From: a virus
Taxonomy: Duplodnaviria > Heunggongvirae > Uroviricota > Caudoviricetes
Reading direction: 5' to 3' (one strand)
Virus record (IMG/VR): IMGVR_UViG_2548876935_000017
Length of the DNA: 9,690 nt
The notes under the pieces are model-generated. The model saw nothing but the letters and a program-made list of their open reading frames with translations, was not told the DNA's origin and did no database searches. A program made the translations under genes and the position numbers. Below are positions 1 to 8,706 of the stretch, in pieces. Positions within the stretch are counted from its first letter, which is position 1. Every line of letters starts with the position of its first letter.

Positions 1-117
1 GAGGAACTGGCGCAATATAATTTGTGGCTGGATTATCTGGACGCACTGGAACTGGTTGATACCTCCAGTGCTCCAGATATTGAATGGCCTACGCCTCCGG
101 CAGTTCAGGCCAGATGA
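1..117 (+). CDS. Tail fibre assembly protein (Tfa/gpG-like), 3' end only; 5' part off-window
   Basis: Frame 1 is open from base 1 to TGA at 115-117 and encodes ...LWLDYLDALELVDTSSAPDIEWPTPPAVQAR. This is clearly paralogous to the C-terminus of the minus-strand Tfa (…AVLDYIDAVTATDTSTAPNVIWPELPEA), sharing LDY-DA, DTS-AP and WP--P. Confidence 0.6.
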   Translation, partial: EELAQYNLWLDYLDALELVDTSSAPDIEWPTPPAVQAR

Positions 118-694
118 CATTCGGCGCGGTGCTGGTATCTGTTGCCGTCACTGCGTCAATGTAATCCAGCACAGCATTAAGTCGGGTTGTTTCTGCCTGC
201 GTCAGCTTCCGCCCGGCCTGTAATTTCAGTTGAATCAGACTGATGGAAGCCATTGCAGCATCAATCAGCGACTGGCGCTGTGCTTCTGCCGCGTCTACTG
301 CGGCACTATGCTGTGCCTCAGTATCTGTCACCCATTTCTCACCATCCCATTTATCGTATGGCGTTAACGGGACGATAGTGGTTGTATTTTCAGGGTAATC
401 ACCCGGAGCTGTGATTTCTTTTGATTCTCCCGTTTCGGTGTTATAGACAACTTCACCGCGATGGTCTGGCACATATTCCCATGAGTTTAAATCTGCCGAA
501 CGGCAGATTGCATAACCAACCTTATGTGTGCCAGGAGCATCTAAACAGGAATATGCAGGGATACCGACACCCACAGCAAGATATTCAGTTGATGCAGAAA
601 TATACTCCCGTGTCTCACTGTCATAGTTATAAACGGTAATCTCTCCTGCCTTTGTGGCAATAAATTTATTATTTAAGATGGCGTTATACATCAT
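89..694 (-). CDS. Tail fibre assembly protein, alternative copy (Tfa') carried in the invertible segment
   Basis: 201-aa ORF of typical Tfa size with the conserved C-terminal WPELP motif; its start overlaps the stop of the upstream fibre ORF (ATGA at 691-694); convergent with the + strand tfa 3' end. Confidence 0.85.
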   Translation of the reverse strand: MMYNAILNNKFIATKAGEITVYNYDSETREYISASTEYLAVGVGIPAYSCLDAPGTHKVGYAICRSADLNSWEYVPDHRGEVVYNTETGESKEITAPGDYPENTTTIVPLTPYDKWDGEKWVTDTEAQHSAAVDAAEAQRQSLIDAAMASISLIQLKLQAGRKLTQAETTRLNAVLDYIDAVTATDTSTAPNVIWPELPEA

Positions 695-1269
695 GCAGCC
701 CTCACAATGTAATTAAATGAAATATTACGTGGGCGTGTCTCTGCTGCACCGACAATACTGGTACTCAACCCCGTTGCCGTTCGTTTGTTATTTTTATTTC
801 CTTCAATCAGACAGTTGTAATCATCATTACCAATTAACGAATTGGTGGCATCAATACTGTCCGGGGACAAGGCATTAGTTGTGGAACTTAAAGTCAGCAT
901 CTCGTCTGAACTTGGAAGATTTTTTAATGGTGTTTCATTGCGTGAAATACCCGCGTAAAAAAAGGACTCATGCCTGTGAGCTTCAAAAGAGTCATTCTGA
1001 AGACTTAGCAAGGCTCGCCCCGCATCCACTCCACGTCCATCATCCCAGCCACGAATAAATTCACCGCGTAAATCAGGCAATTTATTGGTCGGGTAAGCCT
1101 TTGTCAGTTCCGGGTATTCTTCAGCAGAAAAAGCCGCACCATTGCATTTCAGCCAGCCTGTTGGCGGTGTGGCTGAAGGCCATGGAACAGGCACACCAAC
1201 AGGTAATGCAGAGCCTTCTCCCAAACCAACGTTTATGAAAATGCAGAGATAACGGCTAACTGGCATCAT
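691..1269 (-). CDS. Alternative tail-fibre C-terminal (receptor-binding) segment, silent orientation. The ATG at 1269 is probably not a real start; in vivo this segment would be fused to the constant fibre N-terminus after inversion
   Basis: 192-aa ORF immediately upstream of and coupled to tfa'; sequence of tail-fibre distal-domain type (…PVPWPSATPPTGWLKCNGAAFSAEEYPELTKAYP…LPDLRGEFIRGWDDGRGVD…); lies between tfa' and the invertase gene, as S'v does in Mu/P1/e14 segments. Confidence 0.7.
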   Translation of the reverse strand: MMPVSRYLCIFINVGLGEGSALPVGVPVPWPSATPPTGWLKCNGAAFSAEEYPELTKAYPTNKLPDLRGEFIRGWDDGRGVDAGRALLSLQNDSFEAHRHESFFYAGISRNETPLKNLPSSDEMLTLSSTTNALSPDSIDATNSLIGNDDYNCLIEGNKNNKRTATGLSTSIVGAAETRPRNISFNYIVRAA

Positions 1270-1296: not shown

Positions 1297-1890
1297 ATGC
1301 TTATTGGCTATGTCCGCGTATCAACAAATGACCAGAACACGGAATTGCAGCGTAATGCGCTGGAGTGTGCAGGATGTGAGCTGATTTTTGAGGATAAAAT
1401 CAGCGGCACTAAGTCCGATCGACCGGGACTAAAAAAACTGCTCAGAACATTATCAGCAGGTGACACTCTGGTAGTCTGGAAGCTGGACAGGCTGGGGCGT
1501 AGTATGCGGCATCTGGTCATTCTGGTTGAGGAACTGCGCGAACGCGGTGTTAATTTTCGCAGCCTGACGGATGCCATTGATACCAGCACGCCGATGGGGC
1601 GTTTTTTCTTTCATGTGATGGGTGCCCTGGCTGAAATGGAGCGAGAACTTATTGTCGAGCGGACACGCGCCGGACTGGAAGCGGCCAGAGCCAAAGGTCG
1701 TATTGGTGGCAGACGTCCGAAACTCACCGCGAGTGAGTGGGAGCAGGCCGGGCGGTTGCTGGCTGCGGGGGAATCTCGTCAACGCGTGGCACTGATTTTT
1801 GATATTGGTCTGTCCACGCTCTATAAAAAATTTCCCTCATCAGTGACAAAGAATAAATTGTGTCATCCCTTAGCCAACCGGGACAAATAG
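1297..1890 (+). CDS. Serine recombinase DNA invertase (Hin/Gin/Pin/Cin family)
   Basis: 197-aa ORF; N-terminus MLIGYVRVSTNDQ with the catalytic Ser in GYVRVSTNDQ; internal GRIGGRRPKL and C-terminal helix-turn-helix …LSTLYKK; strong resemblance to Pin/Gin as I remember them; RBS GGGGA upstream. Confidence 0.9.
   Translation: MLIGYVRVSTNDQNTELQRNALECAGCELIFEDKISGTKSDRPGLKKLLRTLSAGDTLVVWKLDRLGRSMRHLVILVEELRERGVNFRSLTDAIDTSTPMGRFFFHVMGALAEMERELIVERTRAGLEAARAKGRIGGRRPKLTASEWEQAGRLLAAGESRQRVALIFDIGLSTLYKKFPSSVTKNKLCHPLANRDK
1380..1404. promoter_or_regulatory. Perfect 9-bp inverted repeat (GCTGATTTT-N7-AAAATCAGC) inside the invertase 5' coding region; candidate part of a Fis-dependent recombinational enhancer
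   Basis: Read directly from sequence. In Hin/Gin/Cin systems the enhancer lies within the first ~100-200 bp of the invertase gene; this repeat is 84-108 nt into the ORF. Confidence 0.25.
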
Positions 1891-3152: not shown

Positions 3153-3671
3153 ATGGCAATGCCGCGCAAACTCAAGTTAATGAACGTCTTTCTGAACGGC
3201 TACAGCTATCAGGGCGTTGCAAAGTCCGTCACGCTGCCAAAACTGACCCGTAAACTCGAAAACTATCGCGGTGCGGGGATGAACGGCAGCGCACCGGTAG
3301 ACCTCGGCCTTGATGACGATGCGCTGTCAATGGAGTGGTCGCTCGGTGGCTTCCCGGATTCGGTTATCTGGGAGCTTTACGCCGCAACCGGTGTGGATGC
3401 CGTGCCGATTCGTTTTGCAGGCTCTTACCAGCGCGACGATACCGGCGAAACGGTGGCCGTCGAAGTGGTCATGCGTGGACGTCAGAAAGAAATCGACACC
3501 GGCGAGGGTAAACAGGGAGAAGACACTGAGTCGAAAATCTCCGTGGTCTGCACCTATTTCCGGCTGACGATGGACGGTAAGGAGCTGGTCGAAATTGACA
3601 CCATCAACATGATTGAGAAGGTGAACGGCGTCGACCGGCTGGAGCAACACCGCCGCAATATCGGCCTGTAA
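3153..3671 (+). CDS. FII: Tail tube protein (P2 gpFII-like)
   Basis: 172-aa ORF 12 bp after FI, RBS GGAGCC; P2 FII-like size and position. Confidence 0.9.
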   Translation: MAMPRKLKLMNVFLNGYSYQGVAKSVTLPKLTRKLENYRGAGMNGSAPVDLGLDDDALSMEWSLGGFPDSVIWELYAATGVDAVPIRFAGSYQRDDTGETVAVEVVMRGRQKEIDTGEGKQGEDTESKISVVCTYFRLTMDGKELVEIDTINMIEKVNGVDRLEQHRRNIGL

Positions 3672-3727: not shown

Positions 3728-4003
3728 ATGAACAAAGAAAATGTCATTATCCTGGACAATCCGGTTAAACGTGGTGAGCAGGTTATCGAACAGGTCACGC
3801 TGATGAAACCCAATGCAGGGACGCTGCGCGGTGTCAGTCTGGCTGCGGTCGCAAACTCCGAAGTCGATGCACTGATTAAAGTGCTGCCGCGCATGACGGC
3901 ACCGATGCTGACCGAGCAGGAGGTCGCCGCGCTGGAACTGCCTGACCTTGTGGCGCTGGCCGGTAAGGTGGTCGGTTTTTTGTCGCCGAACTCGGTGCAG
4001 TAA
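3728..4003 (+). CDS. E: Tail assembly chaperone gpE (P2 E-like)
   Basis: 91-aa ORF with RBS GAGAAAA upstream; position between the tube and tape-measure genes; contains the T6G slippery site near its 3' end. Confidence 0.85.
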   Translation: MNKENVIILDNPVKRGEQVIEQVTLMKPNAGTLRGVSLAAVANSEVDALIKVLPRMTAPMLTEQEVAALELPDLVALAGKVVGFLSPNSVQ

Positions 4004-4155
4004 CGTTCCCGAAAAATCTGTCGGTCGATGACCTGATGGCGGATGTGGCAGTGATATTTCACTGGCCGCCATCAGAACTGTATCCCATGAGCCTGACCGA
4101 ACTCATCACATGGCGCGAAAAGGCGCTCCGGCGAAGCGGAAACACGAATGAGTAA
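3728..4155 (+). CDS. E+E': gpE+E' frameshift fusion: -1 programmed ribosomal frameshift at the slippery heptamer 3976-3982, extension terminating at TAA 4153-4155
   Basis: In E frame the codons are GGT TTT TTG (3974-3982). The -1 frame is open from the slip site and reads …FFVAELGAVTFPKNLSVDDLMADVAVIFHWPPSELYPMSLTELITWREKALRRSGNTNE*, overlapping the start of T as in P2. Confidence 0.7.
3976..3982 (+). other. Slippery heptamer T TTT TTG for the E/E' -1 frameshift
   Basis: Read directly from sequence; same heptamer class as the P2 E/E' site. Confidence 0.7.
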
Positions 4156-6595
4156 CAATGTAAAATTACAGGTATTGCTCAGGGCTGTTGACCAGGCATC
4201 CCGCCCGTTTAAATCCATCCGCACAGCGAGTAAGTCGCTGTCGGGGGATATCCGGGAAACACAAAAATCACTACGCGAGCTGAACGGTCACGCATCCCGT
4301 ATTGAGGGATTCCGCAAGACCAGCGCACAGCTCGCCGTGACTGGTCATGCACTTGAAAAGGCACGGCAGGAGGCCGAAGCCCTTGCCACACAGTTTAAAA
4401 ACACCGAACGTCCGACCCGTGCTCAGGCGAAAGTGCTGGAATCAGCAAAGCGAGCGGCGGAAGACTTACAGGCGAAATATAACCGCCTGACGGATTCCGT
4501 TAAACGCCAGCAGCGGGAACTGGCCGCTGTGGGAATTAATACCCGCAATCTTGCACATGATGAGCAGGGGCTGAAAAACCGTATCAGTGAAACCACCGCA
4601 CAGCTTAACCGTCAGCGCGACGCACTGGCGCGTGTCAGTGCACAACAGGCAAAACTTAACGCAGTCAAACAGCGTTATCAGGCCGGAAAAGAACTGGCAG
4701 GAAATATGGCCTCAGTGGGCGCTGCCGGTGTGGGGATTGCTGCTGCGGGAACGATGGCCGGAGTTAAGCTGCTGATGCCCGGTTATGAGTTTGCGCAGAA
4801 AAACTCAGAATTGCAGGCTGTGCTCGGTGTGGCAAAAGACTCCGCCGAAATGGCCGCACTACGCAAGCAGGCGCGCCAGCTCGGTGACAATACCGCCGCC
4901 TCAGCGGATGATGCGGCCGGTGCGCAGATTATCATTGCGAAAGCGGGTGGAGATGTTGATGCCATTCAGGCGGCAACGCCGGTCACGCTGAACATGGCGC
5001 TGGCGAACCGTCGCACGATGGAAGAAAACGCCGCCCTGCTGATGGGGATGAAATCTGCCTTTCAGCTTTCAAACGATAAGGTCGCTCATATCGGGGATGT
5101 TCTCTCCATGACGATGAACAAAACCGCCGCTGATTTTGACGGCATGAGCGATGCGCTGACCTATGCCGCACCAGTGGCAAAAAATGCCGGTGTCAGCATT
5201 GAAGAAACTGCCGCAATGGTCGGGGCGCTGCATGATGCAAAAATCACAGGCTCAATGGCGGGGACGGGAAGCCGTGCCGTGTTAAGTCGCCTGCAGGCAC
5301 CGACTGGAAAAGCATGGGATGCACTCAAAGAGCTTGGCGTGAAAACCTCAGACAGTAAGGGAAACACCCGACCAGTATTTACCATTCTGAAAGAAATGCA
5401 GGCCAGCTTTGAGAAAAACCGGCTCGGTACTGCCCAGCAGGCCGAATACATGAAAACCATTTTCGGGGAGGAGGCCAGCTCAGCCGCCGCTGTGCTGATG
5501 ACTGCCGCGTCAACCGGAAAGCTGGACAAACTGACCGCTGCGTTTAAAGCCTCAGACGGGAAGACCGCAGAGCTGGTAAATATCATGCAGGACAACCTCG
5601 GCGGTGACTTTAAGGAGTTTCAGTCCGCTTATGAGGCGGTGGGGACAGACCTGTTTGACCAGCAGGAAGGCGCACTGCGTAAGCTCACGCAGACGGCCAC
5701 AAAGTATGTGTTAAAACTCGACGGCTGGATCCAGAAAAACAAATCACTGGCGTCAACCATCGGCCTCATTGTCGGTGGTGCACTGGCGCTGACTGCTGTC
5801 ATCGGTGCCATTGGCCTCGTAGCCTGGCCGGTTATCACTGGCATCAATGCCATCATCGCGGCAGCAGGCGCAATGGGGGCAATCTTCACGACGGTTGGCA
5901 GTGCTGTTATGACGGCCATCGGGGCGATTAGCTGGCCGGTTGTGGCCGTGGTGGCCGCCATTGTCGCCGGGGCGTTACTTATCCATAAATACTGGGAGCC
6001 TGTCAGCGCATTCTTTGGCGGTGTGGTGGAAGGGCTGAAAGCGGCATTTGCGCCGGTGGGAGAACTGTTCACGCCACTGAAGCCGGTGTTTGACTGGCTG
6101 GGCGAAAAGTTACAGGCCGCGTGGCAGTGGTTTAAAAACCTGATTGCCCCGGTCAAAGCCACACAGGACACCCTGAACCGTTGCCGTGACACGGGCGTCA
6201 TGTTCGGGCAGGCACTGGCTGACGCGCTGATGCTGCCGCTTAATGCGTTCAACAAACTGCGCAGCGGTATTGACTGGGTACTGGAAAAACTCGGTGTTAT
6301 CAACAAAGAGTCAGACACACTTGACCAGACCGCAGCCAGAACTCATGCCGCCACGTATGGCACCGGTGGTTATATTCCGGCGATCAGCTCTTATGCAGGC
6401 TATCAGGCTTATCAGCCGGTTACGGCACCGGCTGGCCGCTCTTATGTGGACCAGAGTAAAAACGAATATCACATCAACCTGACGGGCGGTACTGCGCCGG
6501 GAACACAGCTTGACCGCCAGTTACAGGATGCGCTCGAAAAATACGAGCGGGATAAACGTGCGCGCGCCCGTGCCAGCATGATGCATGACGGTTAA
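4148..6595 (+). CDS. T: Tail tape measure protein (P2 gpT-like)
   Basis: 815-aa ORF after E/E'; coiled-coil-like, Ala/Gln/Lys-rich N-terminal half and a long hydrophobic Gly/Ala-rich segment typical of tape measure proteins. Confidence 0.9.
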   Translation: MSNNVKLQVLLRAVDQASRPFKSIRTASKSLSGDIRETQKSLRELNGHASRIEGFRKTSAQLAVTGHALEKARQEAEALATQFKNTERPTRAQAKVLESAKRAAEDLQAKYNRLTDSVKRQQRELAAVGINTRNLAHDEQGLKNRISETTAQLNRQRDALARVSAQQAKLNAVKQRYQAGKELAGNMASVGAAGVGIAAAGTMAGVKLLMPGYEFAQKNSELQAVLGVAKDSAEMAALRKQARQLGDNTAASADDAAGAQIIIAKAGGDVDAIQAATPVTLNMALANRRTMEENAALLMGMKSAFQLSNDKVAHIGDVLSMTMNKTAADFDGMSDALTYAAPVAKNAGVSIEETAAMVGALHDAKITGSMAGTGSRAVLSRLQAPTGKAWDALKELGVKTSDSKGNTRPVFTILKEMQASFEKNRLGTAQQAEYMKTIFGEEASSAAAVLMTAASTGKLDKLTAAFKASDGKTAELVNIMQDNLGGDFKEFQSAYEAVGTDLFDQQEGALRKLTQTATKYVLKLDGWIQKNKSLASTIGLIVGGALALTAVIGAIGLVAWPVITGINAIIAAAGAMGAIFTTVGSAVMTAIGAISWPVVAVVAAIVAGALLIHKYWEPVSAFFGGVVEGLKAAFAPVGELFTPLKPVFDWLGEKLQAAWQWFKNLIAPVKATQDTLNRCRDTGVMFGQALADALMLPLNAFNKLRSGIDWVLEKLGVINKESDTLDQTAARTHAATYGTGGYIPAISSYAGYQAYQPVTAPAGRSYVDQSKNEYHINLTGGTAPGTQLDRQLQDALEKYERDKRARARASMMHDG

Positions 6596-8252: not shown

Positions 8253-8333
8253 TGTCTTTTGTTTATCTGTTTGTTTTATAAGGATAAATTAACTAAAATG
8301 GCACTATCAACAAAACCGGAAGAGGTGCTCGCG

Positions 8334-8552
8334 ATGTTTCATTGTCCTTTATGCCAGCATGCCGCACATGCGCGTACAAGCCGCTATATCACTGACACGA
8401 CAAAAGAGCGTTATCACCAGTGCCAGAACGTGAATTGCAGCGCCACGTTCATCACTTATGAGTCGGTACAGCGATACATCGTGAAGCCGGGAGAAGTCCA
8501 CGCCGTGAGGCCGCACCCGTTGCCGTCAGGGCAGCAAATTATGTGGATGTGA
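8334..8552 (+). CDS. ogr: Late transcription activator Ogr (zinc-finger)
   Basis: 72-aa product starting MFHCPLCQHAAH… with a Cys-X2-Cys…Cys-X4-Cys motif (CPLC, CQNVNC). The ORF track begins at an upstream ATG (8259); the internal ATG at 8334 gives the canonical 72-aa Ogr. Confidence 0.85.
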   Translation: MFHCPLCQHAAHARTSRYITDTTKERYHQCQNVNCSATFITYESVQRYIVKPGEVHAVRPHPLPSGQQIMWM

Positions 8553-8562
8553 TCACAAAAAT

Positions 8563-8589
8563 AGCCCCTCAGTTGAGGGGCTTATTTAT
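8563..8589. terminator. Intrinsic terminator hairpin after ogr (AGCCCCTC-AGTT-GAGGGGCT, then TATTTAT); A-run on the 5' side makes it potentially bidirectional
   Basis: Read directly from sequence. Confidence 0.6.
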
Positions 8590-8679: not shown

Positions 8680-8706
8680 CCCCCACATGATGTGGGGGTT
8701 TTTTTT
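8680..8706 (+). terminator. Strong rho-independent terminator (CCCCCACAT-G-ATGTGGGGG followed by T8)
   Basis: Read directly from sequence; GC-rich 9-bp stem plus U-tract, 81 bp upstream of the fieF start. Confidence 0.7.

Follow-up and report, generated by a model that had tools for sequence, protein, structure and literature searches.

A perfect inverted repeat in a prophage DNA invertase gene is very probably a coding by-product just downstream of a predicted Fis-type enhancer

The invertase gene and its surroundings

We analyzed a 9,690-nucleotide stretch of tailed-phage DNA (the window; IMG/VR record IMGVR_UViG_2548876935_000017), in which positions are counted from the first letter and "nt" denotes positions within the invertase open reading frame. 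The features at the locus are as follows.

89..694, minus strand: tail-fiber assembly gene (Caudo_TAP), inside the invertible segment
691..1269, minus strand: alternative C-terminal tail-fiber segment (Collar domain), pointing away from the invertase and spanning the crossover site
1216..1241: 26-bp crossover site of the invertible tail-fiber segment, TTCTCCCAAACCAACGTTTATGAAAA
1297..1890, plus strand: DNA invertase gene of the Pin/Gin type, 197 amino acids
1950..3140: P2-type sheath gene FI, downstream of the invertase
3153..3671: P2-type tube gene FII, downstream of the invertase

The product of the open reading frame contains the Pfam domains Resolvase (E = 2.9e-52) and, at its C-terminus, HTH_7 (E = 1.1e-12), matches the Gin structures 3UJ3 (E = 3.8e-94) and 4M6F (E = 9.7e-93), and is 87% identical over 181 residues to PinE of the e14 element (E. 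coli K-12 pinE, b1158), which bears out the original prediction that it is an invertase of the Hin/Gin/Cin/Pin type. A match to the structure 1HCR, in which residues 139–187 of the query align with residues 2–50 of the chain, gives an offset of one residue relative to Hin if, as we presume, the first residue of that chain is Hin residue 139. With this offset, K46, K47, and R50 in the basic helix-B of the window invertase correspond to Hin K47, R48, and K51, and Q150, R153, and L154 in helix-1 of the DNA-binding domain to Hin Q151, R154, and L155. The residues through which the Mu Gin and Hin invertases contact Fis are conserved in the window invertase. In Hin, the residues K47, R48, K51, Q151, R154, and L155 contact the enhancer and Fis (PMC3798978).

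The 26-bp site TTCTCCCAAACCAACGTTTATGAAAA was identified by alignment with TTCCTGTAAACCGAGGTTTTGGATAA of Mu, which spans the annotated boundary of the G segment, and also with the equivalent sites of Hin-like genes. An identical 26-bp site lies at an equal distance upstream of the e14 gene. No second copy was found within the window at up to 3 mismatches, and the partner site is expected upstream of position 1. Given the type of the invertase, the neighboring tail genes, and the crossover site, the locus is probably the invertase end of an invertible tail-fiber cassette in a P2-like prophage. The e14 element is a lambdoid remnant, whereas the window cassette belongs to a cluster of P2-like tail genes, with FI downstream. 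Escherichia phage pro483, P2 isolate KC618326, and Salmonella phage MET_P1_103_31 are 93–96% identical to the window in nucleotide sequence across 1200–1900 and share its gene order, with the invertase between the tail-fiber genes and the pF promoter; the reference P2 genome (NC_001895) carries fun(Z) in the invertase slot, and the cassette therefore occupies a known variable (moron) position. Related sequences were present in 2343 of 5426 complete E. coli genomes.

Two observations concern the flanks of the gene. The interval from the crossover site to the invertase start codon holds, at 1258–1277, a terminator-like hairpin with a T-run after it (AACTGGCATCATCTCCGGTT TTTATTCAGG), of which the TGGCATCAT / TGGCATGAT part is common to e14 and Mu in the alignment. 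At the other end, the 3′ end of the invertase gene (approximately 1853–1900, with the stop codon at 1888–1890) overlaps a sequence identical to what is annotated in P2 as the activator binding site of pF, and the C-terminus, which is 13 residues longer than that of e14 Pin, reaches into this late-promoter region.

Near the start of the invertase gene lies a perfect 9-bp inverted repeat, GCTGATTTT-TGAGGAT-AAAATCAGC, whose arms are 100% complementary and separated by a 7-nt spacer. It occupies 1380–1404, or nt 84–108 of the open reading frame 1297..1890, precisely as originally described, and encodes the peptide (E)LIFEDKIS. Its parts, and a Fis-like 15-mer that extends from the spacer through the right arm, are as follows.

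1380..1388: left arm GCTGATTTT; encodes Leu29 and Ile30, preceded by the third base of Glu28 and followed by the first two of Phe31
1389..1395: spacer TGAGGAT; last base of Phe31, Glu32, and Asp33
1396..1404: right arm AAAATCAGC; Lys34, Ile35, and Ser36
1390..1404: Fis-like 15-mer GAGGATAAAATCAGC

A predicted Fis-bound enhancer upstream of the repeat

The original prediction took the palindrome as a candidate enhancer element, on the grounds that the Fis-bound enhancers of hin, gin, and cin sit in exactly this part of the gene. GenBank annotates the cin enhancers at nt 19–90 in P1 (AF234172) and nt 19–86 in P7 (AF503408), and window positions 1319–1381 align with both without gaps, so that the 5′ part of the gene is indeed where such enhancers lie; the palindrome itself, however, is downstream. 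The features of the predicted enhancer are listed below, together with the ratio of observed to expected synonymous diversity, which was normalized per amino acid and calculated over 35 representatives (<90% nucleotide identity).

1315..1386: span equivalent to the P1 cin enhancer (nt 19–90), by ungapped alignment
1319..1333: inferred proximal Fis core TATCAACAAATGACC, nt 23–37, center 1326
1367..1381: inferred distal Fis core GTGCAGGATGTGAGC, nt 71–85, center 1374
Codons 9–12: proximal Fis core; observed/expected 0.00–0.17
Codons 14–23: between the cores; observed/expected 0.97 (pooled)
Codons 25–26: distal Fis core; observed/expected 0.22–0.25

Measured on the window, the two inferred cores span 63 bp and their centers are 48 bp apart, in agreement with the 48-bp spacing of the Fis sites in Hin; a literature search returned nothing relevant on this 48-bp spacing. 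The stretch from one block to the other contains the segments AATTG and TAATG, and the center of the proximal core (1326) is ~97 bp from the center of the crossover site (1228/1229), as in the Hin-type layout. In the 65-bp Hin enhancer, which lies ~100 bp from hixL, Fis sites at the two ends enclose the A/T-rich segments ATTTA and TAATG (PMC3798978). Mu gin and Salmonella hin likewise carry their enhancers in the 5′ part of the coding sequence, ~100 bp from the neighboring crossover site, and each comprises ~65 bp in which two terminal Fis cores enclose A/T-rich segments (PMC3798978). P1 and P7 cin carry both conserved blocks at equal codons (GTATCAACAAATGA, GCGCAGGATGTGAGC) in the ungapped alignment, but cin abuts cixL by its 3′ rather than its 5′ end, which places its enhancer ~500 bp from the nearest crossover site, compared with ~97 bp in the window. 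The two blocks of e14 pinE are those of the window except that codon 27, in the distal block, is TGC instead of TGT, a synonymous change of one base.

A Fis core is a 15-bp A/T-rich sequence with G at −7 and C at +7 and usually Y-R steps at ±(3–4), and G at −8 inhibits binding (PMC4784862, PMC2018646). We scored candidate cores by these rules rather than by a numeric matrix, and the core registers given here are predicted. The distal core GTGCAGGATGTGAGC conforms throughout, with the expected G (−7) and C (+7) at its ends, the two Y-R steps, and favorable flanks. The proximal core TATCAACAAATGACC has both Y-R steps and an A/T center at 4 of 5 positions, but T at −7 and an unfavorable G at −8.

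The strongest DNA constraint in the gene falls on nt 25–36 and nt 73–81, both upstream of the palindrome, and synonymous diversity in either core is lower than in any 6-codon window elsewhere in the gene. In 72 of 75 distinct enteric-type genes, the outer positions of the distal core hold G at nt 71 (−7) and C at nt 85 (+7, window position 1381), even though the residues that these bases help to encode vary (C, S, or R at residue 24; L, R, Q, or H at residue 29). Among enterobacterial invertase genes, the DNA of both blocks hardly varies even where protein identity drops to 61%, and both are missing from non-enteric homologs (~64% identity) that encode a similar peptide. The two upstream blocks are constrained at the level of the DNA itself.

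From this constraint and from homology we infer that 1319–1381 binds Fis and acts as the enhancer. Two Fis dimers would occupy the cores at the ends of this segment, centered 48 bp apart, and the Fis-bound enhancer would, through looping of the DNA, activate invertase dimers at the crossover sites, the mechanism of the Hin, Gin, Cin, and Pin systems. The putative enhancer has nothing unusual about it and belongs to the well-studied Hin/Gin/Cin/Pin class. The palindrome lies mostly outside the segment bounded by the two inferred cores. Its first two bases, G-C at 1380–1381, form positions +6 and +7 of the inferred distal core and are its sole overlap with that core; the T-run of its left arm falls at +10 to +14, in the 3′ flank of that core; and it shares 7 nt (1380–1386) with the span equivalent to the P1 annotation, at the 3′ edge of the latter. 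The original prediction thus pointed to the right neighborhood and the wrong element.

Two further groups of relatives are of note. Approximately 27 distinct homologs at 59–65% identity (L113, L116, L118, L132–L163, and similar, among genome contigs), mostly from Betaproteobacteria, Pseudomonas, and metagenome-assembled genomes, have a similar N-terminal peptide, lack both Fis-core blocks, and carry A at both nt 71 and nt 85, which suggests that this branch may be Fis-independent or organized differently. Separately, a relative at 98% identity (L025; IMGVR_UViG_3300029467_000078) has an in-frame TGA at codon 24 of the invertase gene (GAGTGAGCAGGATGC); it is an invertase pseudogene that keeps both enhancer blocks, and a second invertase locus (L037) is present on the same contig.

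Coding constraint and conservation of the repeat

A perfect 9-bp palindrome within coding sequence had been considered unlikely to arise by chance, a judgment that proved weak when the frequency of such repeats was measured. The window contains 4 perfect inverted repeats with arms of at least 9 bp and spacers of at most 20 nt, and at least one is present in 52% of its dinucleotide shuffles. For the 594-bp gene alone, a comparable repeat occurred in 3.6% of dinucleotide shuffles and in 7.0% of synonymous-codon shuffles. We also enumerated all synonymous encodings of ELIFEDKIS, weighted by the codon usage of the window itself; given this peptide, the two arms are expected to match at a mean of 5.9 of 9 positions and a minimum of 4, with a probability of 0.03 for 9 of 9. 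The amino acids dictate 4 of the 9 pairs, namely those of Ile30 (AT) with Ile35 (AT) and of Phe31 (TT) with Lys34 (AA), and the CTN and AGY codon families dictate 2 more, those of Leu29 (CT) with Ser36 (AG). The remaining 3 pairs (nt 84/108, 87/105, and 90/102) involve third codon positions and are free to vary. Once coding constraint and the post hoc scan of 9.7 kb are counted, the palindrome is statistically unremarkable.

The encoded peptide is itself a conserved one. IFEDKISG aligns with IFTDKASG of γδ resolvase, such that D33 and S36 of the window invertase correspond to D36 and S39 of the resolvase, which are active-site residues in the resolvases. The inverted repeat would be a by-product of encoding the conserved serine-recombinase motif (E)LIFEDKIS(G), and the remaining matches would be three third-codon-position coincidences. 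In its codons, L-I-F-x-x-K-I-S comes close to pairing with itself, and those for E-D-K-I-S yield something near a loose Fis consensus; palindromes and Fis-like matches at this place in serine-recombinase genes are therefore to be expected and should not be over-read.

The original prediction named lack of conservation in related invertase genes as a refuting condition, and by that condition it fails, as the palindrome is not kept in pin, cin, gin, or Hin-like genes. The e14 pinE gene also encodes ELIFEDKISG, but its 25-mer is GCTGATTTTTGAAGACAAGATAAGC, with synonymous differences at GAA, GAC, AAG, and ATA and the right arm AAGATAAGC, and pairs at 7 of 9 positions. Complementarity of the arms falls to 5 of 9 in P1 and P7 cin (GCTAATTTT / AAGGCGAGC; residue 35 is Ala), 4 of 9 in Mu gin (ACAAATATT / AAATTAAGC), and 3–4 of 9 in Hin-like genes (CCGCATTTT / CGTATGAGC and similar), for which genes from Pantoea and from a contig labeled Vagococcus sp. 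WN89Y served as stand-ins for hin. Closer to the window, among 84 phage-borne homologs with 78–100% protein identity, only 15 have arms that match at 9 of 9 positions; the commonest variant encodes the identical peptide through GAA GAC AAG ATA and matches at 7 of 9, and relatives at 97–99% identity often have CGG (Arg29) for CTG, giving 8 of 9, with no compensating change. Across 75 distinct enteric-type sequences, drawn from phage contigs and species-level genomes, complementarity spans the range from 3 to 9.

We considered and rejected compensatory evolution of the arms. Compared with the expectation for independent columns, the pair 84/108 is complementary in 37 sequences against 34.7 (not significant), the pair 87/105 in 25 against 20.4 (a weak excess; P = 0.036 with no correction for relatedness), and the pair 90/102 in 30 against 33.4, that is, one of the three free pairs is weakly above expectation and one below it.

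Nor is the palindrome conserved beyond what the protein requires. Observed/expected synonymous diversity is 1.04 and 1.08 at codons 32 and 33 of the spacer and 0.92 and 0.87 at codons 34 and 35 of the right arm, so that codons 32–35 range from 0.87 to 1.08. In raw synonymous diversity, codons 32–36 had appeared conserved (0.43 vs. 0.63), an artifact of two-fold-degenerate codons that vanished upon normalization per amino acid. The left-arm codons 30 and 31 (ATT TTT) are mildly constrained, at 0.52 and 0.65. This would be explained by the position of the T-run in the A/T-rich flank of the distal core, as A/T-rich flanks favor Fis complexes (PMC4784862).

The palindrome, then, is perfect in the window, constrained by its coding, poorly conserved in relatives, and neutral at the synonymous sites of its spacer and right arm. 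It is very probably a by-product of coding with no DNA or RNA function of its own, the enhancer being the ~63-bp stretch directly upstream, at 1319–1381. The practical weight of this is small: a false lead is removed, and the enhancer of a prophage invertase is placed, with the same confidence, at about 1319–1381. The synonymous-site profile offers a simple means of separating a real enhancer from coding by-products of this kind.

Some observations weigh against the by-product reading, among them the weak excess at pair 87/105, the mild constraint on codons 30–31, and the loose Fis pattern of the right half; in addition, the 25-mer recurs, exactly or nearly so, in other genes. In L068 (IMGVR_UViG_3300011585_000007), at 78% protein identity, the identical 25-mer occupies nt 84–108 of the invertase gene, and the near-identical ATTTTTGAGGATAAAATCAG is found in genes of Photorhabdus, Xenorhabdus, and Sodalis. 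These occurrences could stem from a shared codon bias or from mosaic exchange affecting the 5′ end.

Other possible roles of the repeat

The right half of the palindrome resembles a Fis core closely enough that 1390–1404 could be proposed as a clade-specific third Fis site, 23 bp from the center of the distal core, which modulates enhancer geometry or invertase expression. The 15-mer GAGGATAAAATCAGC begins with G (−7) and ends with C (+7), as such a site would, has A at −3 and T at +3 flanking a center that is A/T at all 5 positions, and has acceptable bases at −8 and +8; Fis complexes are affected by A/T-rich flanks and neighboring sequence (PMC4784862). When scored by the rules used above, however, it has neither Y-R step at ±(3–4); three of its matching bases (−7, −3, and +3) are dictated by the codons for Glu, Asp, and Ile; and its +7 base is C in 56 of 75 relatives and T in the other 19. 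Codons 32–35, moreover, are synonymously neutral, and 15-mers of this class number 4 in the window against 2.9 ± 1.8 in shuffles. We judged the Fis resemblance of GAGGATAAAATCAGC to be probably imposed by coding for E-D-K-I-S, with no sign of selection. Fis might bind 1390–1404 in vitro, but a modulatory third site here is improbable. A more specific form of the proposal, that the codons GAG GAT AAA ATC AGC of the P2-like clade have made a working third Fis site at 1390–1404, is decidedly improbable as well. If it were true, a third Fis dimer beside the distal site would change how the enhancer bends or how the invertase is transcribed, and thereby tune the frequency of tail-fiber switching.

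The palindrome could instead act in the mRNA, where a hairpin with a 9-bp stem and 7-nt loop would tune invertase translation or message stability and thereby keep inversion rare. The stem is present in both the minimum-free-energy and centroid structures of 1360–1424. Its stability is nevertheless ordinary (z = −1.43), as 13 of 200 shuffles fold equally well or better; it is disrupted in most relatives, with no convincing compensation; and it begins 84 nt into the open reading frame, distant from the ribosome-binding site. We regard a regulatory hairpin as very unlikely.

That the palindrome is itself the enhancer or the core of one, as first proposed, now seems exceedingly unlikely. Its place in the 5′ part of an invertase gene and its 7-nt overlap with the P1-equivalent span speak for the proposal. 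Against it, pin, cin, gin, and Hin-like genes lack the palindrome yet have working or annotated enhancers; the strong DNA constraint lies upstream instead, at nt 25–36 and nt 73–81; and the known enhancer consists of two Fis cores at the ends of ~65 bp, not of a single 25-bp palindrome (PMC3798978). A repeat that is downstream of the predicted enhancer, overlaps its distal core by 2 bases, and shows no synonymous constraint in its spacer and right arm is poorly suited to that role.

There is scarcely any chance that the palindrome binds another dimeric protein, such as a phage regulator, or serves as a secondary invertase site: its perfect dyad symmetry and 7-nt spacer would suit such a site, but its best match to a crossover half-site is 8 of 12, within the background of 6–9, conservation fails even among relatives at 97–99% identity, and no promoter is nearby. 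Either arm was rejected as a secondary invertase half-site on that score, neither exceeding background, and none of the promoter-like or terminator-like sites coincides with 1380–1404.

In the window as a whole, perfect inverted repeats of the size counted above (arms ≥9 bp, spacers ≤20 nt) are commoner than in shuffles (4 vs. 0.78 expected, P ~0.02). Further short perfect inverted repeats lie at 490–509 and 8680–8698. A 10-bp perfect repeat with a 23-nt spacer (4033–4042 and 4066–4075) is located between the open reading frame 3728..4003 and the 815-residue open reading frame 4148..6595, and an intrinsic-terminator-like stem at 8558–8587 falls just after the open reading frame 8259..8552.
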